From a virus (taxonomy: Duplodnaviria; Caudoviricetes), in IMG/VR virus record IMGVR_UViG_3300036846_001227, positions 1 to 56,993 of that record: a stretch of DNA of 56,993 nt. The stretch is one strand, 5' to 3'. Position numbers and translations under genes: made by a program. The first letter of the stretch is position 1. Each line of letters begins with the position of its first letter. The notes under the pieces were generated by a model. That model had not been told where the DNA came from, searched no databases, and saw only the letters and a program-made list of their open reading frames with translations. Below, in pieces: positions 2,920 through 30,539 of the stretch.

Positions 2920-3187
2920 CCTGCTCGCTTTGGCGGCCTGTGCCCCGACATCTCCTGCTCCGGTCGAAGCCCCTCCACCCCCGGTGATCGCGCCGGTGGG
3001 GTCCTATGCGCCGCCGGCCCCGGCGGAGTATGTGGAGCCGCCGGCCTACCACCGGCACAGGGCGCACCACTACAGGTCCCGCCACTACTACTATCGCCAT
3101 CCGGTTAGCCTGCGGCGGCATGTGACGCGGCACCATTCCGGGGAAGTGCCGGCGTCCTCGCCCCCAAATAGCCCGCTGCCACGCTGA
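2879..3187 (+). CDS. Pro-rich lipoprotein (o-spanin-like candidate)
   Basis: Lipobox LALAAC, then Pro-rich and His/Arg/Tyr-rich tail; GGAG upstream. Confidence 0.6.
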   Translation: MLWWKVLRSLAPPSLLALAACAPTSPAPVEAPPPPVIAPVGSYAPPAPAEYVEPPAYHRHRAHHYRSRHYYYRHPVSLRRHVTRHHSGEVPASSPPNSPLPR

Positions 3188-3246
3188 TGTTCCAGTTGAC
3201 CGAGGAGATGCGCGCCCAGGTGCGGGAGGACGTAAAGTCCATCATG

Positions 3247-4488
3247 TCAGGGGAGAAGGTAAGTCTTCCCCTTGTCCACCCGTTGGCGGAGGTCGCCACG
3301 CCCGATGGCGGCATCCAGGATACGGTTCGCGGTGGCGCTATCCACCGTGCGGGCCACGGCCGCAAAGGCAGTCGTTCGCGGGATCATGTTACCTGGCGAC
3401 GCCACTAGCAGCTTGATGATCTTCTCCAGGGCATCGTGTTCGAGCAGGGCCAAGGCCGTCGGCTCTGGCGCATGCTTGAAGATGTAAGGGACCTCCACCT
3501 CCACCGCATCGACATGGGTCATGGCATCGACGTAGTCGATCTTCTCGATGACGAGGGTGTCGCGCCGGGAGAGGCTGAGGACCATCGCCAGCTTGTGGAT
3601 GTGCGCTTGCTTGCGGGCGAAGAAGTAGCCCAGCCACGGATCGGCATCGGGCAAGTCGGCGTGCGCAGCCATCTTTCTGGAGTGCGCTTCGTACCACGAT
3701 GTGACGAGGGCGTCGGCGGCCGGAGAGAAGGTGATTGGGCCTTCCAAGTTGGAGATGTGGCGGAGGTCTTCCACTAACCGTTGGCTCAGACGCTCGAACT
3801 CGCCGGTGGACCATAACCTAGATGGGCGGGCCACGAACTTGGTCTTCTTGCTCTCATAGACAAAGATGATCCGGGACGAGAGGCCCCAGCCGCCTAGCTG
3901 GCTCTTGATCTTGTCCTTGATCCACTTGGTGGTGGTCCCCGCTATGAGGTTGAAGAAGGGGTGTTCGAGGACATCCGTGCCACCATACTTAGTATCCTTG
4001 ATGATGAGGGGCCGGCAGTCCCAGAGGTCGGTGAGGCCGTTGACCATCTCCTCGTCCTCCGGCTTGAAGAAGGTGCCGAGTTCGGAGATGCCGGCCGTTA
4101 CGGCGCATTGCTTGATCCACTGGTCGTCCTCTACATCGTCACCCAGGGTGGTGCGCAGCTCGACATAGCGCTGAGAGAGGTCCTTGATGAAAGCGGGGTA
4201 AGTGGTGTTGTCGGCGGCGAGGAAGACATGGTCGAGTTCGCGGAGGATGTTGATGCCGAAGCTGATGGTGGTGGACTTGGTCAGGGCACCGGGTGGAGCG
4301 ACGAACACTATGTAGAAGTTGGGGTAGAGCTTGAAGATCACCTCGTCGATGTAGGCACGCCGGGTGACCGCCCCACCAATTGTGGCGACGGCGGTCCAGA
4401 ACAGGAGCCGGGCCGGCGCTTCGGTCTTCGCATCAAAGGTGTTGACGAAGGCCTTGATCCAATCGGAGAAGTGTCGTTTGGCCATCAT
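3247..4488 (-). CDS. DUF3987-like protein (helicase-like partner of phage primase-helicase systems)
   Basis: YPNFYIVFVAPPG..KST, SELGTFF, LTDLWD, GLSSRIIFV and KLAM motifs typical of the family; replication context. Confidence 0.7.
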   Translation of the reverse strand: MMAKRHFSDWIKAFVNTFDAKTEAPARLLFWTAVATIGGAVTRRAYIDEVIFKLYPNFYIVFVAPPGALTKSTTISFGINILRELDHVFLAADNTTYPAFIKDLSQRYVELRTTLGDDVEDDQWIKQCAVTAGISELGTFFKPEDEEMVNGLTDLWDCRPLIIKDTKYGGTDVLEHPFFNLIAGTTTKWIKDKIKSQLGGWGLSSRIIFVYESKKTKFVARPSRLWSTGEFERLSQRLVEDLRHISNLEGPITFSPAADALVTSWYEAHSRKMAAHADLPDADPWLGYFFARKQAHIHKLAMVLSLSRRDTLVIEKIDYVDAMTHVDAVEVEVPYIFKHAPEPTALALLEHDALEKIIKLLVASPGNMIPRTTAFAAVARTVDSATANRILDAAIGRGDLRQRVDKGKTYLLP

Positions 4489-5729
4489 GATCCGGTCTGC
4501 AAGATGGTTAGCCTTTCAGAGGAGCGGGTGACGGCGGTGTAGAGCCAGCGCCGGCGGAAGTCCCGGTCGTAGGCCATGAGCCGGTCGTCGATAACGACGA
4601 CACGCGGCCACTCCGATCCCTGGGCCTTGTGCGCGGTGATGGCGTAGGCCCAGTCGAACTCGACCTGGTCCTTGTTCTTCCAGGTCTGGTTAGTCTCCTT
4701 GAGGAGATCGGGATTGAAGTGGCACTCGAAGTGGTAGCGGGCGATCTTGACGCTAGGGTGGACGGTGCCGTCTACCAGCAAGTCGGCGGTGAAGTAGGGT
4801 AGGCCCTGGCGGTCCAGGTGGATGCGCCAGACGTTGACCATCTGGCCGTTGATAAAGCCTTCGCCGTAGTTGTTGCGGCAGCAGATGAGGGGTTCGCCGG
4901 GGCAGGGAGTGTGGCCGACGAAGCCATCCTTGGCCCGGCAGCGGCGGGTCACGGCGAAGCGGCTCTTGTGCCTCCCACATATGACCATGTTGTCGGGGTC
5001 GGTGATGATGTCCCAGACGGCCTCGCCCATGAGCGGCATGACGCGGACCGTGTCGCCGTCGCCCATGTGTGGCCGGATGGGCGAGCCCTGCCGGACCAGC
5101 CAGGCCAGGCGGTCCACGGGCGAGTTCAGGACGGAGCGGTGCGGCTCCGTCAGCCGGAAGTCGGGCTTCCAGTTGAAGAAGCCGGGATCGCCCTTGACCG
5201 GCGGCAGCTGGCCGTCGAGGTCGCCAAGGACGATGGTCGGGACACCCGTAGAAGTGATGTCCTGGACCATGCGGTCGGGCACCATGCTGGACTCGTCGAT
5301 GACCAGGAGGTCCAGGCTTTCGAGGAAGGCCGGCTCGAAGATGCCGGTGAGCTTGCCTTTCTCGTCGTGGCGTGGGTAGTACATCGCAGAGAAGAGGGTG
5401 CGTGCGCCTTCCATCCCCTTCTCCTGCATGACGCGGGCGGCCTTGGCGGTGTAGGCGGCGTAGCAGACTTCGATGGGTTTGGGGTCGAGGGCCTGGACGG
5501 CATGGTAGGCCAGGGTGGTCTTGCCGGTCCCTGCTCCGCCGTCGAGCAGGAAGAACCGGCTCCGCCCCGGCGGGACTGCCGGCTCGTGGCTGTAAGCTAT
5601 GTCCTCAAAGAGGGAGTCGATTTCGTTGAACGGGGTTGGTGGTGTGGTAGGTTGTGGCGGTTGGAGGTCTGCCCACCACTTCTTGATGGCGGCTAGGGCG
5701 GCTTGTTGTTGCTCAGATAATTCGATCAT
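4485..5729 (-). CDS. SF1B RecD/Dda-like DNA helicase
   Basis: Walker A GGAGTGKT, DESSM, GDxxQLPPV, AYAITAHKAQGSEW, LYTAVTR; ATGA overlap with the polymerase C-half stop. Confidence 0.92.
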   Translation of the reverse strand: MIELSEQQQAALAAIKKWWADLQPPQPTTPPTPFNEIDSLFEDIAYSHEPAVPPGRSRFFLLDGGAGTGKTTLAYHAVQALDPKPIEVCYAAYTAKAARVMQEKGMEGARTLFSAMYYPRHDEKGKLTGIFEPAFLESLDLLVIDESSMVPDRMVQDITSTGVPTIVLGDLDGQLPPVKGDPGFFNWKPDFRLTEPHRSVLNSPVDRLAWLVRQGSPIRPHMGDGDTVRVMPLMGEAVWDIITDPDNMVICGRHKSRFAVTRRCRAKDGFVGHTPCPGEPLICCRNNYGEGFINGQMVNVWRIHLDRQGLPYFTADLLVDGTVHPSVKIARYHFECHFNPDLLKETNQTWKNKDQVEFDWAYAITAHKAQGSEWPRVVVIDDRLMAYDRDFRRRWLYTAVTRSSERLTILQTGS

Positions 5730-6481
5730 GCTGCTTGGCTCCATTTGTGGACCTCGCCCCAACTGCTGGGTGAATACTTCAGGCTCACGGGGATGTAGAG
5801 CGGGTCGTCAAAAGGGATGCGGACCTGCATCGCCTGGATGATCTCGGGGAAGATGCCGGGGCAGAGGTCCTCTCGCACTTCAAGGAGGAGGCTGTCGTGG
5901 ACCTGTAGCTTTAGGCGGACAGAGTCGCGGGGGAACTTGGCCCTCACTTGGAGCATGGCGTGGTTGATGGCGATGGCGACACCCGATTGGCCGAGCCAAG
6001 CAAGGGCTTGCGGTAGCAAGGCCTCGGCGTTGTGGCCGTCGAGCCGCTCAAAGTAGAAGCGGCGGAACCCCCAGACGTTGCGGATGTAATGTTGCAGGCG
6101 CAGGAGGGTGAGGGTGCTCTCGTGCCACCGCCGGATACCGGGGTACTTGCCAAACCAGTAGTGCTGGAAGGCTTCGGCGATGGCGATGGTGGTGCCCAGC
6201 GTGGCCGCCAGGGTGCGGGCCTTGCCGCCGTAGTTGGTGAGGTGGAGGCCGGCCTTGAGCGCCTGGCGAGAGACTACCTTCTTGGCCCAGCCCGATACCA
6301 GGGCGGCGTTCTCGGTGTGAACGTCCAGGCCCTCTTGGAAGATGACCTTGAGGGCCGGCTCGTTGGCGCTCCACGCAACGATCTGGGCGTCTGCGCGATC
6401 GAAGTCCGCGTCTACTAATACCCACCCGGGGTCTGGCTTGATGAGAGAGCGGATGGGGGGGAGGTCAGGCTGGAAGGGCAT
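5726..6481 (-). CDS. DNA polymerase family A, C-terminal (palm/fingers) subunit
   Basis: Motif A DADFDRADAQ, motif B RQALKAGLHLTNYG, motif C QVHDS; own ATG at 6481 with AAGGA upstream. Confidence 0.9.
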   Translation of the reverse strand: MPFQPDLPPIRSLIKPDPGWVLVDADFDRADAQIVAWSANEPALKVIFQEGLDVHTENAALVSGWAKKVVSRQALKAGLHLTNYGGKARTLAATLGTTIAIAEAFQHYWFGKYPGIRRWHESTLTLLRLQHYIRNVWGFRRFYFERLDGHNAEALLPQALAWLGQSGVAIAINHAMLQVRAKFPRDSVRLKLQVHDSLLLEVREDLCPGIFPEIIQAMQVRIPFDDPLYIPVSLKYSPSSWGEVHKWSQAA

Positions 6482-6773
6482 CGTTCGCTTCCTTGGCCTC
6501 GAAATGTGCGCCGTCGGGGCCGCACAGGTCGATATGGGTGATGCCGGTTTCGCTTTCGTTGCGTTGCAGATAGCACTCGGGCCAGCGCGGCTTGCCGTCG
6601 ACCAGGGACATGACCTGTTGTGGGGAGGTGCATTGCGGCTCCTCGTAAAGCTCTTCATCGATGACGCACCAGCGGCAGTCGGTGCAGATCGGCGGCGCAG
6701 TTGTCAGGGTCACGTTTCGCGGGGATGGGTCGGGCATGTCGTTGATACTCCCTACAGTTCCAGGTTTGTTCAT
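6465..6773 (-). CDS. Small Cys-rich hypothetical protein inserted between the polymerase halves
   Basis: CTDCRWC...C...C...CGPDGAHFE; start may be the downstream Met (MPDPS). Confidence 0.65.
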   Translation of the reverse strand: MNKPGTVGSINDMPDPSPRNVTLTTAPPICTDCRWCVIDEELYEEPQCTSPQQVMSLVDGKPRWPECYLQRNESETGITHIDLCGPDGAHFEAKEANDALPA

Positions 6774-6828
6774 GACACCAGTAACAAAGTGAAACTTTCT
6801 ATGCGTTCCCCTTTAGTCCCTTGCAGCT

Positions 6829-8601
6829 TTACTCCTCCATCCGAGGTAAGTTCTGCAAATTCCCAGCCTCCCCAAGGGCGGTGTGGTTCATCGAGAAGCG
6901 GTAGGTTTCGGGGCCGGCGACGTTGATGGCGGGGCGTAGCCGGCCATCGCGGCTGAGGCGCATGTCGAGGAAGTTCTCCTTGTAGACGGCGAGGGAGCGC
7001 ACAGCTTGGATGCGCTCGACCAGGGGCCGCAGGATGGGCCGCACGATCTTGAAGCGTTCAAGGGCGTGGTCGTTGACGGTGGGCTGGCGGGTCTTCCTGT
7101 GTAGGATGGGCTTGAGCCGGAGGTCTTCATAGAAGAGGCGCTGCATCTGTTGCGAGGACTCGACGTTGAGCGGATGCCCCACAGCCTCGTTGATCCAAGC
7201 CTGAGCCTCCTTGATCTGGCGCTCGACATCGGCCCGGTAGGTACGGCGGGCGGTATCGTCGAAGGCGAGGCCGGCGAACATCATCTCGAAGACAGCGGGG
7301 AAGAGGCTCATCAGGAACTCGTACTGCTCCCACAGCTTGTTGCTGTGAAGCATTTGCCGCTGCGCAGCAAATACCTCGTGTGTTCTCACGAGGTCTTCGC
7401 AGTTGTAGTGCCAGTATTGGAGTTCGTCGTGGATTGAGGGGTCCCAGCCTTTGCCGTCGTCCTTCCAGTAACGGTGGTAGTCACAGTAGATCGAGGAGCA
7501 GAATAAGAGGCTGTAGCTGCTGCCGCTCTTGCTTGTGCGGCCGGTGATGGGGTCGATCTTGCCGCCGAGCTGGGCCGGGAAGAGCGTGTGCTGAGCGACC
7601 ATGCTGTCGTGGGTGAAGCGGGGAAGCCAACCCCAGTTGTGGGCTATGACCTGACAGTCGTGGAGGCCGTTGTGGAAGAGGACAGGCCGGCGTCGCAGGT
7701 AATCGCGGAGGAGGAGCACGGCGTCCCGCTCTTCCTCTGGAGAGGCCCACCAATGGGGGTTGTCGCCGGCTCGATGAGCAAAAGGCACACAGCAAGCAGT
7801 GTGAGGATCAACAGCAAGGCCAAGGCAATAAATGCGAGCGTCATGTACACGTTCGGTGGAGTAGTCGTTCTCAACGTCGGCGGTGACGTAGGCGTCTTCG
7901 GGGAGCGTCGCGAAGTTGTCTCCCAGCCAGTCCCGTAGCTCGTGCAGCGAGCTAGGGACCGTGAAGCTCCAGGTGGGCCGTCGCACTTCCGGGTAGCGGG
8001 ACTCGCGAAGGGCTCGCTTGAGGTCATGGATGACGATCCCCTTCCACTGGTATTCACGGAGGACCGAGGCGGTGTGAACAGCGGGGATAAGTTTGATCCC
8101 CTTGCCATCCACTGGGCCGCCCGAAGCCTCCATGATGGAGCCGCGCCAAGACCTTATGCCAGTGTGCCCTGTAAGTGCCCAGAGGGCGGTGTTGCCCATG
8201 GCGATGATCAGGCGGGGCCGGAGGGCGTCGATGTCCTTCTGTAGCTGGACGAGGCCCTCGATCACCGGGCGGCGAGCACACCGGCCCGCGATCACGGTGA
8301 TGTCGGCAGCTAGGCGAGAGGCTGCATTGGCAAGGCTTAGGGTGTCGAGCTTGGGGGCATTCTTGGCCTCGGTCTTGGTGGCGAAGAACTTCTCGATCTC
8401 GTTGCCGGGGGGCCGCTCATGGCAGACGTTGGTGATGAAGAGTTGGGAGCGGAGGAGGCCGGCCGCACTCAACTCCTTGTCCAGCTCCCACCCGCTGATG
8501 CCGGAGAAGGGCCGCCCGGAGCGATCCTCCTCCTGGCCGGGCGCTTCCCCACACAGAAGTATTCCCCCAGGTGTTCGCGGCCCTTCTTGGATCAGACGCA
8601 T
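6829..8601 (-). CDS. DNA polymerase family A, N-terminal subunit: family-4-like UDG + 3'-5' exonuclease + thumb
   Basis: GEAPGQEEDRSGRPFSG and TNV..RPPGN (UDG-4); DVE, HNGLHD and YNCED (Exo I-III); ends TYRFS..NLQNLPR then stop. Confidence 0.88.
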   Translation of the reverse strand: MRLIQEGPRTPGGILLCGEAPGQEEDRSGRPFSGISGWELDKELSAAGLLRSQLFITNVCHERPPGNEIEKFFATKTEAKNAPKLDTLSLANAASRLAADITVIAGRCARRPVIEGLVQLQKDIDALRPRLIIAMGNTALWALTGHTGIRSWRGSIMEASGGPVDGKGIKLIPAVHTASVLREYQWKGIVIHDLKRALRESRYPEVRRPTWSFTVPSSLHELRDWLGDNFATLPEDAYVTADVENDYSTERVHDARIYCLGLAVDPHTACCVPFAHRAGDNPHWWASPEEERDAVLLLRDYLRRRPVLFHNGLHDCQVIAHNWGWLPRFTHDSMVAQHTLFPAQLGGKIDPITGRTSKSGSSYSLLFCSSIYCDYHRYWKDDGKGWDPSIHDELQYWHYNCEDLVRTHEVFAAQRQMLHSNKLWEQYEFLMSLFPAVFEMMFAGLAFDDTARRTYRADVERQIKEAQAWINEAVGHPLNVESSQQMQRLFYEDLRLKPILHRKTRQPTVNDHALERFKIVRPILRPLVERIQAVRSLAVYKENFLDMRLSRDGRLRPAINVAGPETYRFSMNHTALGEAGNLQNLPRMEE

Positions 8602-8606
8602 GTCAG

Positions 8607-9230
8607 CTACTTCCGCGATGGCGAGCGAAGCGAGCCAGGGATGTCGAGGGGGAGGGGAACGTCGTGCGGGATAGTGGCCAGGGGGACGATGCCGAGGGCT
8701 GAGAGCTGGTCGAACATCGCGTCCTGCTGGCCCTCGTCGTTGACCAGGACGCCGTCGGGTTCGATCTCCTTCCACTCCTGCTCAGAGATGTGCTTGTCAC
8801 AGGTGCGGAGACCGGGCCGGCTGATGGTGAAGATTTTGCCGCCCGCCGCTCGCACCGCAGCCGCCTCATGGTGGAACCTCATGTCGTCGCAGACGACATT
8901 GCGGGAGCCGAGGAGTTTGAGGCGGGACTGCCAGATGCCGGACCAGAGGGTGCGGTCGATCAGGTCGCGCCACTCGGTGCCGAGGGTCTGCATGACGTGG
9001 CGCGGGGATTGACCCGCGAGGTAGACCGAGGGCGCGTCCTTGCGGCTGCCCAACAGCATAGCCTGGATGCTGTAAGGGGGCACACCTTGATAGTGGAGGA
9101 GGGCGGCGACCATCTCCTTGATCGGGGCCGCGAAGGGCAGCGGGAGGAAGCCGCAGGTGTGGGTGAGGATTGTGGCGGCGGTGGACTTGCCGCAGCCACG
9201 GGGACCGATAAAGGCGATGATCTGGGGCAT
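8607..9230 (-). CDS. Deoxynucleoside monophosphate kinase
   Basis: IIAFIGPRGCGKST, FAAPIK, SPRHVMQTLGTEW, DDMRF..E, HISE motifs of T4 gp1-like dNMP kinases. Confidence 0.9.
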   Translation of the reverse strand: MPQIIAFIGPRGCGKSTAATILTHTCGFLPLPFAAPIKEMVAALLHYQGVPPYSIQAMLLGSRKDAPSVYLAGQSPRHVMQTLGTEWRDLIDRTLWSGIWQSRLKLLGSRNVVCDDMRFHHEAAAVRAAGGKIFTISRPGLRTCDKHISEQEWKEIEPDGVLVNDEGQQDAMFDQLSALGIVPLATIPHDVPLPLDIPGSLRSPSRK

Positions 9231-9239
9231 GTGTTCCTC

Positions 9240-9440
9240 CTAGGGTATGGGTGAGTTGCGGCCGACGGGGACCTCTGGCGGGTCTTCCGGTACACATGAC
9301 CAGGGCAAGGGTTGGGCGACTTCGAGGGGCCACTCCTCCTCGATGGAGCTATGCCAGCCGAGCGGTCGCTTGAGCCGGCGGGGCTGGGTCGCAAGGAGGC
9401 AGCGGGGGACGTGGCGACCAGGGGTAAGCTTCTCAAGCAT
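9240..9440 (-). CDS. Hypothetical protein
   Basis: AGGAG RBS; fills the operon gap. Confidence 0.45.
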   Translation of the reverse strand: MLEKLTPGRHVPRCLLATQPRRLKRPLGWHSSIEEEWPLEVAQPLPWSCVPEDPPEVPVGRNSPIP

Positions 9441-18047: not shown

Positions 18048-19268
18048 CTAGTCTCCTAGCTGGACGTTCTCCCCCCACGGGGCTTCGCTGCCGCGCTCGC
18101 CGCTGAGCCAGAGGACTGGATAGGGCTGGGGGTCGCCGAAGTCGGCCCTGCTCATCTCCATGTCGGAGAGGACGATGGCACAGCGCGGCTGGTAGTTGCC
18201 GTCGTGGACCGCTTGCCAGATGGGCCGCATCGAGGTGCCGCCGTAACCACGGACGGGAACTTCCTGGGGCAGCTCGTCGTCGGGGGAGTATTCGGTGACG
18301 TTGTGGACCTTGGTGTCGCACTGGATGAAGATCGTGCGCTCCGGCTTGACCTCCGAGAGGATGAGAGAGAGGAAGCCGAGGAAGCGGGGGACGAGGTCCC
18401 GGCATGAGCCGCTGGTGTCGATGCCGATGACGATCTCACCGATGCCCTGGCTGTGGAGAGAGGGCAGGATGAGGTTGCTGTGGATGCTGCGGCGGTTGGG
18501 CCGGGACCAGCTGTAGTCGTCCTTGCGGCACATGCTGACGTAGTAGCGGATCAGGTCCCACGGGTTGAGGCGGGGCTTGACCGGCCGCACCAGGTGCTCG
18601 TAGGAGCCGGGCAGGTGGCCCTGGCTCTTGGCGATCTCGGCGGCCTGGCGGGCAATGATGGTCCACTTGCGTTCGAGGTCTTCGAGGATGGCGCGCTTCT
18701 CTTGGGGGGTGGCGGCACCCGAAGTGGGGTCGGTCGGGTCGTGGATGTCGCCGTCGAGGCCGCAGGGGGGAAGCTTGGGTGGGTTGGTCTTGTTCTCCTC
18801 GTAGAGTTGCTCTGCGGCCTTGCCCTTGTTTTGAGGGTTATGGAAGATGGCGTTGGCCTCCGGCGAACCGTGGTCAGGAGGCTCGAACCCGTGGAAGATC
18901 AACTCCGGGTCGATCCGTTGGTCGCAGGCGATGTTCCAGCCGAGGGGATCGCGGGAGCCGCGACGCCAGCCGTCGCCCTTGGTGCAGTGCGAGGTTTCGT
19001 GGGCGATGGTGGCGATGAGTTGGCTGTCGCTGACCTGCGCCTTGTCGCAGTAGACCAGCGGGTCGTAGATGATGTAGGTGCCGTCGGTGCCGATGTTGCC
19101 GGCGACCATCTGTGCGAGGTGGGGGACGGGCTTGAGTTGGAGGTGGAGGGCCGCCGTCGCCCAGAAGGCGAAGGTGCATTTCCCGTTGGCGTCGTGGGTG
19201 GTGAGCATGTGGGACCGAGCGCGACGGATGCGGCGGTCGGCGACGGCAATGGCTTCATCGAGGTTCAT
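18048..19268 (-). CDS. Metallopeptidase-like + VWA domain protein (DUF2201-like)
   Basis: TDG, HETSH, WNIACD..I, YSWSRPNRR, IDTSGS, GGT and SD (MIDAS) motifs. Confidence 0.88.
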   Translation of the reverse strand: MNLDEAIAVADRRIRRARSHMLTTHDANGKCTFAFWATAALHLQLKPVPHLAQMVAGNIGTDGTYIIYDPLVYCDKAQVSDSQLIATIAHETSHCTKGDGWRRGSRDPLGWNIACDQRIDPELIFHGFEPPDHGSPEANAIFHNPQNKGKAAEQLYEENKTNPPKLPPCGLDGDIHDPTDPTSGAATPQEKRAILEDLERKWTIIARQAAEIAKSQGHLPGSYEHLVRPVKPRLNPWDLIRYYVSMCRKDDYSWSRPNRRSIHSNLILPSLHSQGIGEIVIGIDTSGSCRDLVPRFLGFLSLILSEVKPERTIFIQCDTKVHNVTEYSPDDELPQEVPVRGYGGTSMRPIWQAVHDGNYQPRCAIVLSDMEMSRADFGDPQPYPVLWLSGERGSEAPWGENVQLGD

Positions 19269-19281
19269 CGAAGGGTTCCTT

Positions 19282-19310
19282 CTGCACAAAACCAGCAGCA
19301 ATCGCAGTAT
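19282..19310. repeat. Intergenic motif A copy (29 bp)
   Basis: CTGCACAAAACCAGCAGCAATCGCAGTAT, identical to the core of the 26951 and 9531 copies. Confidence 0.9.
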
Positions 19311-20997: not shown

Positions 20998-22032
20998 TTA
21001 GGACAGGAGGTCCTGGAACTTGGCGCAGAACCGGATGAAGGCACCGCTCTTCTGGAGCCGCTGGTAGCGGTTCTGTTCGAGGGGCGGCAGGGCCTTGAGA
21101 CGGGCGGCATCGACGGCGAGAGCGGACCTAACCGTGTAGACCGCGAACTCCGGCTCCACCCGGTCCAGGTAGCGGACGATGCGGTCGAAGTTGTTGTTGG
21201 TGGCGGCGGAGGAGAGGGCGGTGGTCACGACGTAGAGCGCGCCGGGGTTGGTGGGGACACGGGCCGTGTCGGGATTGGCGAGGATTTGGGCGACCGAGAC
21301 AAGCTCGGCGGCCATGCTGGCGAAGGCGACGAACTCGGTGGCGGGGCCTTCGCCCACCCATCCCTTGATGGCTTCAAAGGGAGGGATGGCGGGGGCGTAG
21401 GCGTTGCAGACCTTGGACAGTTCGTCCCAGGTGCGGGGGCAGGCAAAGGGGCCGGGAACCTCGGGCTTGAAGTTGACGAAGTTCATCGGAGCGTGCTGCA
21501 TGAAGGCGCGGACCAGGACAGAGCCGCCGGTCGCCGCCATGTGCTGGGTCCAGCCGTCGCGGTCAGGCTCGAACTCCAGCCAGCCCATCTTGGAGACGAG
21601 GGGCTTGGGCATCTGCTGGACGGCGGCCCGGTCCTCGGCGCGGTTGCCGGTGGCGACGATCATCCAGTCGGCACCGATGTTGTCGCGCTCGTAGACCGTG
21701 CGATAGGCCGCCGCCTGCGTTAGGGGCGGGGCGGTGGGCAAGTCATCGAAGAGGATGATGCCCGCGCCGGTCTGGGGTACCAGATCGCTGAAGCTGATGC
21801 GCCGGGCCTCACCGTCAATGATGGCAGGGAGGCCGCCGAAGTCGAGCGGGTCCACCACCGTCATCTGGATGGCGCGGAACTGGAAGTCGTGGATGGTTTC
21901 GCGGATCACGTCGCTAGCGGCCCGGACACAGGCCGACTTGCCGATGCCGGGGGGGCCGGAGAGGTAGGTGGTCTGGCGGAGGCCAGCCATGTAGAGCTTG
22001 GTGATGTGATCGACTACCTGGTTGAAGATCAT
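20998..22032 (-). CDS. MoxR-like AAA+ ATPase
   Basis: GPPGIGKS, D..GLP, ILFDD, ATGNR..DRA and CPRTW motifs. Confidence 0.88.
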   Translation of the reverse strand: MIFNQVVDHITKLYMAGLRQTTYLSGPPGIGKSACVRAASDVIRETIHDFQFRAIQMTVVDPLDFGGLPAIIDGEARRISFSDLVPQTGAGIILFDDLPTAPPLTQAAAYRTVYERDNIGADWMIVATGNRAEDRAAVQQMPKPLVSKMGWLEFEPDRDGWTQHMAATGGSVLVRAFMQHAPMNFVNFKPEVPGPFACPRTWDELSKVCNAYAPAIPPFEAIKGWVGEGPATEFVAFASMAAELVSVAQILANPDTARVPTNPGALYVVTTALSSAATNNNFDRIVRYLDRVEPEFAVYTVRSALAVDAARLKALPPLEQNRYQRLQKSGAFIRFCAKFQDLLS

Positions 22033-27524: not shown

Positions 27525-27820
27525 TGTCTCTTGCGCATGACGACACCCCCGTCGCGCAGACTTACTTGACCCGCGAGGAAGCCGCCGCTTACTTGTCCGA
27601 GCGCTTGCGCGGCCAGTTCAACGCCAAGCAAATCTCCAAGTGGGGCGACAAAGGTCCGCGCTACCGGCTCTTCCGGGGCAACAAGGCTGCCCGAGGCGGC
27701 GGCTGGGGCCGGTGGGCACTCTACACCGCCGAGGACCTCGAAGCCTGGATCGAAACCCAACTCGTGGAGCCGTTCCCCAATGGAAGACCTGACGAGCATT
27801 CTGCCGGCGAAGCGGGTTAA
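27524..27820 (+). CDS. Xis/AlpA-like HTH DNA-binding protein
   Basis: YLTREEAAAYL...W..KGPRY...LY..EDLEAWI; AGGAGG RBS. Confidence 0.75.
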   Translation: MSLAHDDTPVAQTYLTREEAAAYLSERLRGQFNAKQISKWGDKGPRYRLFRGNKAARGGGWGRWALYTAEDLEAWIETQLVEPFPNGRPDEHSAGEAG

Positions 27821-30539
27821 CCGGCGACGGAGTAAACCAACCCTCGAACTGCCAGTCTCCGAGCAACTTGTTGCTGGGACGACCCCGCAATGGAGATCCC
27901 TCTTTCAGGTCTTCCTCGACCATCTCACTATCGAGAGCCGGGAGACGGGCACCACCACTCTTGGCAAGCACCTCTGGGGTTCGCAGACCCGCGTCCTCGA
28001 CTTCTTGGCCGCCGGCATGGACGAGGGCATCCGCGACTTCACCATCCTCAAGTCGCGGCAGCTGGGGGAGTGCCTTGACCCCGATACTCGCATCCTGACC
28101 GCCGACCTGCGTTGGGTCGCGATCCGCGACATCAGAGAGGGAGAGGAAGTCGTCGCTGTCGATGAGGAGCCAACAGGTGGAGGACGTGGCCAAGGCCAAA
28201 GGAAGATGCGGCGGGCTACAGTCCAGGCTAAGGTCTACAAGGAACTTGACGCCTACAAGCTACACTTCTCCGATGGGCGTACCATCATTTGCACCGGCAA
28301 GCACCCGTGGCTGGCGAAGCCAACGGCAGGATATAAGCAGCCGACGTGGTGTTCTCTAGAAAGCCCGGCAGGCAATACACGTTTGCGGATCGGCTCACTC
28401 GTCCGTTGGGTAACGGAGCCATGGGGGGCTTCCACCATGGAGGATGGGTGGTTTGGTGGGATGCTTGATGGCGAAGGCTCGTCGCACTGGCCACGCGCCG
28501 GTGGAGGGAACGTAAACGTATCGCAGCGTCGAGGTCCTGTGTGGGACCGCCTGGTCCGCTACGCTGAGCAGGAGGGCTATCACTACAACATCGAGAATGA
28601 TGAACGTCCTCGCCTAACCAAGTACGGTAAGGTCCCTGTACCAAAGCTCGTCTTTTCCCGGGCTAACGAGATCATGCAACTTCTGGGACAGACGAAGCCG
28701 ACGCGCTTCAATACCGACTTCTGGGAAGGCCGGGAGCTTCCAGGCAAGAAGAGCAACATCGGTTACAGCGAGCTGGTTGCGATAGACCGTCTTGGTCGAT
28801 GGCAGGTTGTCGATCTTCAGACAACGATGGGCACCTACATTGCCGAAGGCTTTGTATCGCACAACACCACGATCTGCCTGGCCATCGACCTATTCTGGCT
28901 CTTCCTCTATCCTGGCATCAACGGCTGCATCCTCATCGACGACGAGGGCAACCGCGACAAGATACGGGTGATCCTGCGCCAGTTCGCCAACGGTCTGCCG
29001 CCGAAATGGCGGCATCGGATCGTCGACGACAACAAGACCCTCATGAGCTTCAATGTGGGTGGCAAGCTCTCGATGCTGGACTTCCTCTATGCCGGCACCC
29101 GGCGCTCAACCTTGGGGGCCTCGCGCTCCTATCGCTTTGCCCACATGACCGAGGTCGCCAACTATGGGGACCCGGAGGGCCTGGAGAACTTTATCCAAAC
29201 TCTATCCGAAGGGCACCCCGACCGGCTCTTCATCAAGGAGTCGACCGCCAACCACTTCAATCACTTCTACCATATGTGCGAGCAGGCGAAGGAAGACACC
29301 CACACTCAGCGCTTCTGCTTTGTGGGGTGGTGGTCGCGTGACGATCAGCGCATCGCTTCATCGGACCCTCGCTACAACGAGTACATGGAAGAGCCATGGA
29401 CCGACGAAGAACTCGAACTAAAAGACGAGGTACTCCGATTGTATGATGTCACGGTCGATGACGAGCAACTCTGCTGGTATAGGTGGCGCTCGACGGCCCG
29501 TTCCATCGATGAGGGGATGCTGCACCAGACCCAGCCGTGGACTGAGAGCCAGGCCTTCGTCCTGTCGGGGCGCTCCTTCTTCCCTTTAAGGCGCGTTGAG
29601 GCCGACATCAAGGAGATTTACCAGGCCGCGCCGGCCCAGGACTCGCCCTATGACTTCACGGCCTTTCGGTATTACTTGGGCCAGGACCTCCCCTCCACCA
29701 CTATCGAGGAGGTCCACACCATCGAGGAGGCCGACCTAAAGGTCTGGGAGGACCCCGTCCCCTGGGGAAGATATGTCATAGGGGTTGACCCAGCGTATGG
29801 CCGCAGCGACTGGAACGACTCGCACGCCATCACCGTCTGCCGGTGTTATGCCGACAGGCTGGTGACAGTGGCCGAGTACGGCACTCCCGAACCCGAAACC
29901 TTCCAGGTCACCTGGGCACTCGCTCACCTGGCCGCCCTCTATGATGATTGCTACATCAACATCGAGGTCAAGGGACCCGGCGTCGTCATCATGAACGAGC
30001 TGCGCCGGCTCAAGGTCTGGCTCCAGTCCCAGATGATGGCGACCATTGTCCATGACAAGGACTGGCACAACATCACCGACAACGCCAAATGGTACTTGTG
30101 GCACCGCCCCGACTCCCTCGGCAAGGGTTATGCCTACGGTGTCAACACCACCTATGACCTGAAGATAGCCATAATGAACGAGCTGCGGGACAGCTACATC
30201 AACCATGCCCTGTGGATCAAATCCCTGCGCTGTCTCAAGCAGATGCAGTTTGTGGTACAAGAAGGCGCGGACATCGGGCCGGGTGCCAAGGGCCGCAACC
30301 ACGATGACTACGTCTTCAGTCTCGCCTTTGCTCACCGGGCGTGGCAGGACTGGGTCCGGCAGGACCTGATCGACCTCGGCTACACCTGGCAGCGTGCTCA
30401 GCAGGATGACCTCGACAGGAAGACCGGTCGGCCGCCCAATGTCGTCGCCAGCATCGTGTCCAACTTCTTTGCCAACAAGGAGCGCGACCGCACCGAAGGC
30501 CCACCCGAACAGCAGTGGTACCGGGAGCGCGGCCTGTGA
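27780..30539 (+). CDS. terL: Terminase large subunit (intein-containing)
   Basis: ILKSRQLG.TT Walker A split by the intein, HMTEVA Walker B, ESTA, nuclease IGVDPAYG and HDD.V motifs. Confidence 0.92.
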   Translation: MEDLTSILPAKRVNRRRSKPTLELPVSEQLVAGTTPQWRSLFQVFLDHLTIESRETGTTTLGKHLWGSQTRVLDFLAAGMDEGIRDFTILKSRQLGECLDPDTRILTADLRWVAIRDIREGEEVVAVDEEPTGGGRGQGQRKMRRATVQAKVYKELDAYKLHFSDGRTIICTGKHPWLAKPTAGYKQPTWCSLESPAGNTRLRIGSLVRWVTEPWGASTMEDGWFGGMLDGEGSSHWPRAGGGNVNVSQRRGPVWDRLVRYAEQEGYHYNIENDERPRLTKYGKVPVPKLVFSRANEIMQLLGQTKPTRFNTDFWEGRELPGKKSNIGYSELVAIDRLGRWQVVDLQTTMGTYIAEGFVSHNTTICLAIDLFWLFLYPGINGCILIDDEGNRDKIRVILRQFANGLPPKWRHRIVDDNKTLMSFNVGGKLSMLDFLYAGTRRSTLGASRSYRFAHMTEVANYGDPEGLENFIQTLSEGHPDRLFIKESTANHFNHFYHMCEQAKEDTHTQRFCFVGWWSRDDQRIASSDPRYNEYMEEPWTDEELELKDEVLRLYDVTVDDEQLCWYRWRSTARSIDEGMLHQTQPWTESQAFVLSGRSFFPLRRVEADIKEIYQAAPAQDSPYDFTAFRYYLGQDLPSTTIEEVHTIEEADLKVWEDPVPWGRYVIGVDPAYGRSDWNDSHAITVCRCYADRLVTVAEYGTPEPETFQVTWALAHLAALYDDCYINIEVKGPGVVIMNELRRLKVWLQSQMMATIVHDKDWHNITDNAKWYLWHRPDSLGKGYAYGVNTTYDLKIAIMNELRDSYINHALWIKSLRCLKQMQFVVQEGADIGPGAKGRNHDDYVFSLAFAHRAWQDWVRQDLIDLGYTWQRAQQDDLDRKTGRPPNVVASIVSNFFANKERDRTEGPPEQQWYRERGL
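28071..28865 (+). mobile_element. Intein (265 aa) with a LAGLIDADG-like motif
   Basis: Starts CLDPDTRILTAD, block B T..HPW, WFGGMLDGEGS, ends VVDLQT..GTYIAEGFVSHN followed by Thr. Confidence 0.93.

Follow-up and report, generated by a model that had tools for sequence, protein, structure and literature searches.

Split polymerase genes in phages

Family A DNA polymerases are the best-studied DNA polymerases and have been treated as single chains. Divided genes for replication enzymes, including split polymerases, are already known in phages. As summarized in a review of phage "genes-in-pieces" (PMC2988022), nrdA is split by mobE in Aeromonas phage Aeh1, and the family B polymerase gene 43 is divided into 43A and 43B in phages 25 and 44RR. 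That review describes the published cases as keeping activity and the 43A and 43B halves as co-purifying. In such systems, an essential replication enzyme is encoded in two cistrons where relatives have one contiguous gene, and the parts are separated by an endonuclease gene or an untranslated spacer.

Family A polymerases encoded by two genes have also been described. In T7-like cyanophages of the S-SBP1 type, gene fission separates the exonuclease from the polymerase (Czernecki et al., 2023; PMC10201439). This fission is reported to have arisen via a frameshift with no insert, and the two products, when modelled with AlphaFold, superpose on an intact relative (PMC10201439). In LUZ24-like phages, "DNA polymerase part I" and "part II" are annotated with many small ORFs between them (PMC3890496). 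In both cases, the breaks lie between the exonuclease and polymerase domains. A third set of observations concerns mobile elements. Group I introns with HNH genes interrupt phage polA at sites equivalent to E. coli position 674 in SPO1, SP82, Bastille and Pf-WMP3, and at position 676 in phiL7 (PMC3428280). The conserved DNA that encodes the NLQNIP motif has been published as a hot spot for homing in PolA genes.

In this report, we describe a phage polA gene that is divided within its polymerase domain. The most likely reading is that gene fission has produced a two-subunit PolA.

Organization of the locus

The window, by which we mean the whole stretch of 56,993 bp that was analysed, is the complete genome of an uncultured soil phage with direct terminal repeats. 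On its minus strand, PolA-N, a Cys-rich ORF (here called M) and PolA-C form three coupled cistrons of one replication operon. The first-pass annotation of this DNA had described a family A polymerase split into two genes with an ORF between them, and both its coordinates and its wording were correct. Three other IMG/VR contigs have the identical three-gene layout, with halves that are 90-98% identical in protein sequence. All neighboring genes named here are on the same strand and in the same operon. A dNMP kinase gene (8607..9230; phrog_139, E 4.4e-42) lies directly upstream, and its stop is 5 nt ahead of the PolA-N ATG. A Dda/RecD-like helicase gene (4485..5762; phrog_325, E 7.9e-75) follows PolA-C; by ORF-list coordinates, its first in-frame start, a TTG at 5762, overlaps the end of PolA-C at 5726. 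A DUF3987-type primase gene (3247..4488; phrog_14296; PF13148) is next.

The PolA-N cistron (6829..8601) runs from an ATG at 8601 to a TAA stop at 6831-6829 and encodes 590 aa ending in ...GNLQNLPRMEE. Its product matches phrog_17 (DNA polymerase) and comprises a family-4 UDG-like domain, a 3'-5' exonuclease, the thumb and the first palm element. The UDG-superfamily domain (approximately residues 13-185; 8047..8565) matches PF03167 (E 3.7e-18), and its best solved-structure matches are the family-4 UDGs 1l9g, 1vk2 and 1ui0. The N-terminal third of the polymerase domain, from the thumb to the NLQNLP block (6844..7242), matches positions 6-132 of the 381 in PF00476 (E 8.3e-11) and aligns to residues 206-357 of the Klenow chain and also to Taq. 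With the offset between chain and Pol I numbering, residue P586 corresponds to Pol I P680. Judged by these matches, which agree with the earlier reading of a UDG-exonuclease-thumb ORF ending at 6829, PolA-N is of the UDG-PolA type, in which a UDG-superfamily domain precedes the exonuclease and polymerase in one chain.

The PolA-C cistron (5726..6481; 251 aa plus stop) starts at an ATG at 6481 (MPFQPDLPPIRSLI...), 17 nt inside the end of M and in a different frame, and AAGGAAG precedes this ATG. As had been annotated, it is a separately initiated ORF with LPPIR and motifs A, B and C. It encodes the remaining palm and the fingers, matches PF00476 positions 140-371 of 381 (E 4.6e-29) and aligns to Klenow chain residues 370-602 and to Taq. 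Among 30 split C halves, D26, D31, K76, H195 and D196 are invariant and Y84 is nearly so. These residues align with D..E, K...Y and HD of Taq, which belong to motifs A, B and C, respectively. The PF00476 match, the catalytic carboxylates and the motif B Lys and Tyr assign the split protein to the family A DNA polymerases.

The PolA-N stop and the PolA-C ATG are separated by 347 nt, in which a spacer of about 90 nt (6738..6828) is followed by M (6465..6737; 90 aa plus stop). The presence of a Cys-rich ORF after PolA-N was correctly noted by the first-pass annotation; what changes is its start. The ORF list gives 6773 (102 aa), but the ATG used in three close relatives corresponds to 6737, which is the likely start. 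DNA alignment revealed that these relatives lack the spacer, and their M starts 1 nt after the N stop. M belongs to an unnamed family of small phage proteins with five conserved Cys, and profile searches assigned it to no Pfam or PHROG family.

Position of the break

The break divides the PF00476 match between two ORFs. Its site lies between NLQNIP and motif A, in a surface loop that varies in length and corresponds to residues 681-688 of E. coli Pol I. Consequently, the thumb and the palm and fingers are encoded on different chains. PolA-N ends 4 residues past NLQNLP and PolA-C begins 6 residues ahead of LPPIR. Together these residues make a loop of normal length, so nothing is missing. Intact relatives read NLQNIPKGGGDDELELPNVR across this loop; split relatives end in ...KGDEE and a stop, then resume with M...ELPNIR. 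At the protein level, the residues flanking the break are conserved and agree with the loop of intact relatives.

The cut between PF00476 positions 132 and 140 is inside the polymerase domain, unlike those of the S-SBP1 and LUZ24-like phages. Our literature search returned no break inside the PolA palm; the only PolA fission that it found (PMC10201439) is between the exonuclease and polymerase domains. The break is about ten codons downstream of the published intron sites 674 and 676 (exon 1 of SPO1 ends ...GRLSSNEP), and the locus shares a small gene region with the intron-bearing polA genes, of which SPO1 also encodes a UDG-PolA. A further common feature is the presence of HNH genes in the gaps of some relatives. 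The cultured Vibrio phage vB_VspS_VS-ABTNL-3 (MF497422) has the same breakpoint: PVS_29, PVS_28 and PVS_27 read ...NLQNLPKGDG and a stop, a 184-aa ORF, and then M..LPNIKKLF. However, this relative is 26-35% identical and falls outside the clade of the window, and its intervening ORF is of other families (phrog_8380).

Distribution and history of the split

A survey of relatives, as the first-pass annotation had proposed, found the same breakpoint to be common. Among the 120 homologues listed (of 271 matches), 84 terminate 2-12 residues past the motif, 35 are at least 740 aa long and 1 fits neither class. Of 177 loci examined, 104 were intact and 43 were split (35 distinct gaps), while 21 had the N end only and 9 had no N end. 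As in genes-in-pieces, the gene is thus contiguous in many relatives, and the divided form has its own stop, SD and start.

The window is inside a clade in which every member is split (29 of 140 rows, SH-like 95). IQ-TREE also recovered this clade (21 of 69 rows, SH-aLRT 97), and the lowest pairwise identity within it is 39.5%. Its phages come from soil and freshwater. All distant outgroup rows are intact. Intact PolA is the ancestral form, and the split arrangement is old and stable. Across the tree, the split state requires 8 changes, and well-supported branches force at least 3 of these. An AU test rejected the grouping of all split rows in one clade (p 0.0002). The history of the locus therefore includes repeated fission, re-fusion or lateral replacement. 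Compared with 43A/43B, the split concerns a family A rather than a family B polymerase and has been kept across a large and deep clade.

Gap content and a possible origin

The gaps between halves range from 18 to 2213 nt. Their cargo changes and is unrelated between relatives, with several genes in the largest, and includes HNH and GIY-YIG endonucleases, an exonuclease, a dNMP kinase, a pyrophosphatase and small ORFs. The gap behaves as a slot with rapid turnover of its content. In one relative, the kinase inside the split is 34% identical to the dNMP kinase encoded upstream of PolA-N in the window. The window differs from genes-in-pieces in that its gap has no endonuclease and in that related gaps hold changing cargo of up to 2.2 kb.

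The first-pass annotation saw no homing nuclease here, and the window gap indeed holds the Cys-rich ORF only, yet relatives carry HNH and GIY-YIG genes at this position. Endonuclease genes lie directly upstream of the C half in three loci (HNH_3 in L101, GIY-YIG/SegE in L111 and a PHROG HNH in L151), that is, in 3 of 35 distinct gaps, with 22 of 67 chosen gap ORFs scanned. With these counts, and with no endonuclease in the window, the case for an endonuclease origin is circumstantial. We infer that a free-standing homing endonuclease, or an intron since decayed, may have inserted beside the conserved DNA encoding NLQNIP. Purine-rich codons in the acidic loop (GGAGA., GAGGAG) would then have supplied the downstream half with a ready-made ribosome binding site.

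A broader and rather speculative proposal, which we consider improbable as a whole, is that the loop after NLQNIP of UDG-PolA is a long-lived integration and expression slot within an essential gene. Fission would be tolerated indefinitely, coupled accessory genes would be loaded into the gap, the split would spread or recur via homing endonucleases, and the five-Cys protein of the window could be a metal-binding third partner. The accessory genes named for the slot are those for dNMP kinase, MazG-type pyrophosphatase, DEDDh exonuclease, di-haem oxidoreductase and small metal-binding proteins.

Assembly of the two chains and alternative explanations

We regard it as probable that the replicative PolA of this phage is made as two polypeptides from coupled cistrons of one operon, a two-subunit enzyme derived by gene fission. 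PolA-N would contribute the UDG-like domain, exonuclease, thumb and the palm element up to NLQNLP; from PolA-C would come the strand that runs into motif A, the fingers with motif B, and motif C. The chains would reassemble non-covalently into the ordinary PolA fold. A two-chain complex model, also proposed by the first-pass annotation, gave an ipSAE of 0.89 in three runs, whereas the best-scoring control of three gave 0.00. Shared contacts amounted to at least 94%, and the partner pLDDT was at least 88. Of 80 solved complexes, 58 attained this mark; of 110 mismatched pairs, 2 did. The pass probably reflects likeness to known single-chain PolA structures; such a pass is expected, and the result thus speaks to fold compatibility rather than binding. 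Purifying selection, conserved catalytic residues and the complex model give indirect support to retained activity of the split enzyme.

The best surviving alternative, though an unlikely one, is that the halves are partly independent or that M is a third subunit or regulator. PolA-N alone, with two complete domains and their own active sites, could act as a UDG-exonuclease in repair or editing, and the split could serve dosage or timing; differential regulation is raised for the T7-like exonuclease/polymerase split in the account of Czernecki et al. (PMC10201439). Translation of M is coupled to that of both halves, and M has conserved Cys residues. However, M is missing from most split relatives, evolves faster than both PolA halves (dN/dS 0.23-0.49), and in 3 of 3 distant loci its family occurs with no PolA within 3 kb. 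Outside this setting, M is not tied to polymerases.

The first-pass annotation had left open a heterodimer or a spliced or bypassed message. It is very unlikely that a single-chain PolA results from self-splicing of the 347 nt as a group I or II intron or from their bypass by the ribosome. The idea has precedent: group I introns interrupt phage PolA genes, including the UDG-PolA gene of SPO1, just upstream of the break, and the Pf-WMP3 intron opens with UAA, a would-be stop for exon 1 (PMC3428280). The Rfam group I model is weak (the real SPO1 intron scores 25.6 bits against a gathering score of 50), and a very divergent ribozyme could escape the scan. Yet RF00028 and other intron models found no match at E <= 10 in window positions 5600-9000, and 14 split loci likewise gave nothing at E <= 1, while the SPO1 intron was found in the same scan mode (E 0.0013). 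The gap RNA folds worse than shuffled sequences (z +2.2), and most of the gap is taken up by an ORF that is under purifying selection. In three relatives (L110, L147 and L167) the gap is only 18, 23 and 24 nt long, respectively; each of them has a separate stop, an SD-like purine run and a separate start, and in L110 the stop and start overlap as GTGA. The unrelated multigene cargo of other gaps and the protein-level conservation beside the break also speak against splicing or bypass.

An intein or split intein was rejected. Stops and a frame change separate the halves, Pfam shows no Hint or intein match in PolA-N or PolA-C, and the termini, 4 and 6 residues from conserved blocks, leave no room for one; the earlier statement that no intein ends are visible holds. 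One relative (P0008) carries an intein, located elsewhere, within its N half. With a breakpoint kept under selection across a deep clade, gaps of 18-24 nt, no intron match and no room for an intein, the comparative evidence favors the heterodimer over splicing or bypass, and a heterodimeric PolA is what we infer.

It is likewise very unlikely that the gene is broken and decaying and that the phage relies on a host or other polymerase. A stop codon inside the polymerase domain does resemble a fresh pseudogene, but both halves are under strong purifying selection rather than relaxed selection: in pairwise comparisons of the window and its three close relatives (L006-L008), dN/dS is 0.06-0.10 for the N half and 0.08-0.17 for the C half at dS 0.32-0.64. 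Catalytic residues, start codons and ribosome sites are retained, as is the breakpoint at 39.5% identity. Although the window comes from a metagenome assembly, an assembly or sequencing artefact is hardly credible, with the layout repeated in three contigs that differ at many synonymous sites, the breakpoint present in 43 loci and annotated as two genes with an ORF between in the cultured Vibrio phage, and a 555-nt Logan contig (DNA run X1, which may be the source sample) covering 6347-6901 without differences. No RNA run was found to contain this stretch.

Conclusion

A palm break kept clade-wide to about 40% identity suggests that the catalytic domain of a family A polymerase can assemble from two chains. 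Natural split PolA pairs would provide a ready set for studies of reassembly, regulation and engineering. There are consequences for annotation and for virome surveys in which polA is the marker: 84 of the 120 homologues listed (of 271 matches) are called as a truncated "UDG" or "DNA polymerase" protein, and it is easy to overlook the C half. The fast-changing cargo suggests that the traffic of selfish elements may make an essential gene into a gene slot.

Organization of the Split Polymerase Genes

The window, a complete IMG/VR virus record of 56,993 bp bounded by direct terminal repeats, encodes both halves of the family A DNA polymerase in a replication operon on its minus strand. The genes follow the order kinase, PolA-N, small ORF, PolA-C, helicase and primase, and the cistrons are tightly packed. 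The dNMP kinase gene (9230-8607; phrog_139) is followed after 5 nt by the ATG of PolA-N (8601-6829; 590 aa), which matches PF03167 (UDG) and positions 6-132 of PF00476. PolA-C (6481-5726; 251 aa) matches positions 140-371 of the 381 in PF00476. The PolA-C reading frame, whose ATG is preceded by AAGGAAG, shares its first 17 nt with the end of the small Cys-rich ORF (6737-6465). The ORF of a Dda/RecD-like helicase (5762-4485; phrog_325), with TTG 5762 as its first in-frame start, overlaps the end of PolA-C at 5726 by the ORF-list coordinates, and profile matches identify a DUF3987-type primase at 4488-3247. PolA-N terminates in ...GNLQNLPRMEE-TAA and PolA-C begins with MPFQPDLPPIRSLI. The first-pass annotation had described a polymerase divided into two genes with an ORF between them, and this was correct in every detail.

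The one change concerns the small ORF, for which a start at 6737 (MPDPSP...) is more likely than one at 6773, because its three close relatives (L006-L008) begin there. In a scan of 5600-9400, no promoter-like sites were found and the one terminator-like site lay inside PolA-N, fewer than in shuffles; a separate transcription unit is therefore not suggested. A repeat search of 6300-7000 returned short chance-like repeats only, and the insert has no flanking repeats.

Two further genes of this genome deserve mention. A 919-aa ORF (27780-30539, plus strand) matches the large-terminase family phrog_2 only over residues 394-856, against 274 profile positions, and has no Pfam match; it has a long N-terminal extension and possibly an insertion too. 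A DUF2201 metallopeptidase/VWA-like protein (PF13203, PF09967) is encoded near an ATPase gene (phrog_1297; 18048-19301 and 20998-22032, both minus strand), and its PHROG name "HNH endonuclease" looks wrong.

Position of the Break in the Polymerase Fold

Residues 429-586 of PolA-N align to residues 206-357 of the Klenow chain, and residues 13-242 of PolA-C to residues 370-602. This chain is taken by us to begin at Pol I residue 324. With that start, P586 of PolA-N corresponds to Pol I P680 and I10-R11 of PolA-C to I689-R690. This places the break in the loop formed by residues 681-688, which separates the NLQNIP block from the strand leading to motif A. In intact relatives the same loop is acidic and variable in length, as in NLQNIPAGGGGRNPEELELPNIR and NLQNIPKGGGDDELELPNVR. 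The four residues past NLQNLP in PolA-N and the six ahead of LPPIR in PolA-C together give a normal loop length, and nothing has been lost.

A related UDG-PolA is cut elsewhere in Caulobacter phage Kuura (L004, 2971-6375), with UDG/exonuclease at 2971-4080, polymerase at 4693-6375 and two small ORFs between them.

Separate Cistrons or a Spliced Message

A heterodimer and a spliced or bypassed message had both been offered to explain the split. An intron in the gap, removed from the message to restore one ORF, is unlikely. Near-zero gaps occur in three split loci (18 nt in L110, 23 nt in L147 and 24 nt in L167), where each junction consists of the N stop, a purine-rich run and the C start; in L110, the C start overlaps the N stop as GTGA. 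In L006-L008, a single nucleotide lies between the N stop and the ATG of the small ORF. Spacings of 18-24 nt and 1 nt thus leave no space for an intron. The proposed Infernal check also spoke against one: in a permissive Rfam mode, no intron was found in 5600-9000 of the window (E <= 10) or in 14 split loci (E <= 1), whereas the SPO1 polymerase intron used as positive control was recovered in the same mode (E 0.0013, 25.6 bits). A gathering-threshold scan of 16 loci gave no matches and is uninformative, because the SPO1-type intron, at 25.6 bits, lies below the gathering score of 50. The RNA of the window gap folds worse than shuffles (z +2.2).

The codons of the acidic PolA-N tail resemble Shine-Dalgarno sequences, as in GGAGACGAGGAG and GAAGAGGAAGAA, in ATGGAGGAGTAA of the window (6829-6846) and in GGAGACGAGGAGTGA of L110. 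Intact relatives have an acidic loop too, so the site may have been pre-adapted to fission.

Misassembly and gene decay, named by the first-pass annotation as possible refutations, were both rejected. L006-L008 share the three-gene layout, with protein identities of 95-98% for the N half and 90-95% for the C half. A 555-nt Logan contig from a soil DNA run, which may be the source sample, spans 6347-6901 with zero differences. Pairwise dN/dS among the window and L006-L008 was 0.06-0.10 for the N half, 0.08-0.17 for the C half and 0.23-0.49 for the small ORF (dS 0.32-0.82, except one small-ORF pair at dS 0.13). The shared layout and the identical contig therefore argue against misassembly, and the low dN/dS of both halves against the relaxed selection expected under decay. 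An intein or split intein was also rejected, since the termini leave no room for one and have no Hint match, in keeping with the earlier remark that no intein ends are visible at the break.

Contigs of the soil DNA run X1 part from the window inside the gap, with loose ends at 6503, 6571, 6606 and 6850, and a single X1 contig has an 85-nt joint (6391-6477) whose shorter side is 24 letters long. These most likely represent co-occurring strain variants, and the pattern would fit different inserts in them. Among the sequencing runs listed for this stretch there was no RNA run, and every aligned contig came from DNA. An intein does occur in a PolA-N relative (P0008; 852 aa, 72% identical), which also ends in NLQNLPRIEE: it lies in the exonuclease region (PF14890 at 428-658, Hint at 387-506), so that an intein and the split have both affected one and the same polymerase gene.

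Distribution and Phylogeny of the Split

A search for PolA-N homologues returned 271 matches, and end points were taken from 120 of them. Among these 120 listed homologues, 84 stop 2-12 residues past the NLQN-type motif, and most of these tails are acidic (PRMEE, RPDED, KGDEE); the remaining 36 comprise 35 proteins of at least 740 aa that read through the loop and one fragment. DNA around the relatives was collected from IMG/VR, metagenomes and genomes, and 177 loci were classified by script: the loop is uninterrupted in 104, a C half lies downstream of the break in 43 split loci, 21 have the N end only and nine are without an N end. The C half is absent from the available DNA of the 21 N-end-only loci, of which 17 stop at the split-type position, three reach the contig end and one reads on. 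Because some contigs occur in two collections, the 43 split rows correspond to 35 distinct gaps. The suggested survey of relatives recovered the same breakpoint repeatedly. It was also found in a cultured virus, Vibrio phage vB_VspS_VS-ABTNL-3, whose annotation shows two polymerase genes separated by an ORF of 184 aa.

Phylogenetic analysis used 151 N halves whose match started within the first 40 query residues; internal stops were absent, and 140 remained once identical copies were removed. FastTree placed the window in a clade of 29 rows (SH-like 95), every one of them split, with a minimum pairwise identity of 39.5%. A further all-split clade of nine rows (99) and several scattered split rows were also recovered. 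The split/intact label changes eight times on this tree, and at least three changes are forced by well-supported branches. A quick IQ-TREE tree of 69 chosen rows likewise required eight changes, with a window clade of 21 rows (SH-aLRT 97). A single clade of all 34 split rows was rejected by the AU test (delta lnL 202, p 0.0002). The intact form is ancestral, because the distant outgroup rows are all intact. The loop has thus had a repeated history of cutting, re-joining or lateral replacement.

Cargo of the Gap

The distinct gaps range from 18 to 2213 nt in length (median 677), and cargo was sought in 22 of 67 chosen plus-strand gap ORFs. Nucleotide metabolism is represented by a dNMP kinase in L018 (PF21448) and by MazG-type pyrophosphatases in L049, L157 and L170 (phrog_5658). 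The dNMP kinase upstream of PolA-N in the window shares 34% identity (E 1e-23) with the in-split kinase of L018. RNase_T/DEDDh exonucleases were found in L097 (PF00929) and L095 (phrog_192), and gap ORFs of L099, L101, L111, L112, L114 and L117 were judged exonuclease-like by eye. HNH endonucleases occupy the gaps of L101 (PF13392) and L151 (phrog_374), and a GIY-YIG/SegE endonuclease (PF01541, PF19835) that of L111; all three endonuclease genes end at, or overlap, the C-half start. Other cargo comprises a di-haem oxidoreductase in L013 (PF06537), a ChlI/Lon_C-like protein in L154, HTH_3 in L022, DUF4326 in L103 and, by a weak match, a Mom-like protein in L097. Several scanned gap ORFs had no family match.

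The gap also differs between close relatives, as in L013 (2098 nt) and L014 (307 nt). The L013 gene (6383-7879) encodes a 499-aa di-haem oxidoreductase/peroxidase-like protein (E 3.3e-36 to its family), and its sister contig L014 has only the 307 nt at that place. Compared with L006-L008, the window has an extra 90 nt, and the small ORF of L006 and L007 has a C-terminal extension of about 50 aa. The tail region differs in L008 (4879-5004), where the extension gives way to an ORF of 41 aa that has a CxxC motif and ends in a basic tail; this ORF may be the remnant of a zinc-finger or endonuclease gene. The 204-nt gap of L106 (3967-4171) encodes two very short hydrophobic peptides of about 31 and 29 aa.

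The small Cys-rich ORF of the window belongs to a family without a name. No Pfam or PHROG family covers it, a phage-database search gave no match, a word-indexed search returned only the ORF itself, and its Atlas clusters are all viral and unnamed. With a profile of four copies, 1.84 billion representatives yielded 31 proteins at E <= 0.001. Thirty of these are 67-177 aa long; the outlier, P0129, has 2869 aa and five short matched stretches. The family alignment has conserved C18, C21, C36, C55 and C72, plus R59 and a CG..G..FE end, and the protein is probably metal-binding. Its AlphaFold model (mean pLDDT 77) had no Foldseek match in the PDB at E <= 0.001; the best match, the beta subunit of benzylsuccinate synthase (E 0.5), is a lead only. 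In IMG/VR, the 3 kb around three distant members of the family contain no PolA. The small ORF is therefore a promiscuous small phage gene that occupies the slot by chance, and no reason is seen for naming its product a polymerase subunit.

Function and Predicted Assembly of the Halves

Across 30 aligned split C halves, D26, D31, K76, H195 and D196 never vary and Y84 hardly does. These residues line up with those of motifs A, B and C in Taq polymerase. The suggested complex modelling was carried out for the N and C chains (from the alignments of N halves, A1, and C halves, A3). It gave an ipSAE of 0.89 in three runs, with at least 94% of contacts shared and a partner pLDDT of at least 88, whereas the best of three controls scored 0.00. 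Of 80 solved complexes, 58 attained that mark, as did 2 of 110 mismatched pairs. The predicted interface joins residues 421-466, 525-569 and 585-588 of PolA-N to residues 2-17, 137-146, 162-180 and 189-195 of PolA-C, the contact expected within single-chain PolA. Because single-chain PolA structures are abundant, the model is limited to fold fit: it shows that the predicted chains are compatible with the known PolA fold and says nothing of binding. The best reading of the locus, with high probability, is a family A polymerase of two subunits, each translated from its own cistron.

Many split C halves of different subclades end in ...AA (KWSQAA, MKDAA, KIAA, KKAA, EKAA, HAA in A3; 5729-5734 in the window). 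This ending could be a conserved C-terminal tail that a partner recognizes, or it could mark the proteins for degradation.

Relation to Known Systems and Origin

Phage replication enzymes in pieces, tied to homing elements, are already known as a general kind. The nrdA gene of Aeh1 is split by mobE, and phages 25 and 44RR carry gene 43 in two parts, 43A and 43B, whose products are active and co-purify (PMC2988022). Split polymerases have been described in T7-like cyanophages (10.1101/325100), and the available text of PMC10201439, which also describes UDG-PolAs, terms the exo/pol fission in these phages the first splitting seen in PolAs. The break reported there is only between exo and pol, whereas the break described here lies inside the polymerase domain. 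In LUZ24-like phages, numerous small ORFs separate DNA polymerase part I (171 aa, exonuclease) from part II (546 aa) (PMC3890496), and OM43 phage DNA polymerases are split with a small ORF of unknown function (PMC10580990). Splits are not mentioned in PMC13697223 and PMC6302109, as far as a term search of these two papers goes. No description of a break inside the PolA polymerase domain at this position was found in the open-access texts searched, in which the position of the MEP401/402 split (PMC10580990) is not given.

Group I introns have been reported at E. coli sites 674, 676 and 881 (PMC3428280). Exon 1 of SPO1 ends in ...GRLSSNEP, immediately ahead of the NLQN block; the present break lies some ten codons further downstream than this classical homing site. 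We infer, at roughly an even chance, that movement of homing endonucleases or introns at the NLQNIP hot spot plausibly gave rise to the split. What is new is that the cut lies within the polymerase catalytic domain of a UDG-PolA, has persisted in a large clade and recurs, and that the gap serves as a slot for cargo.
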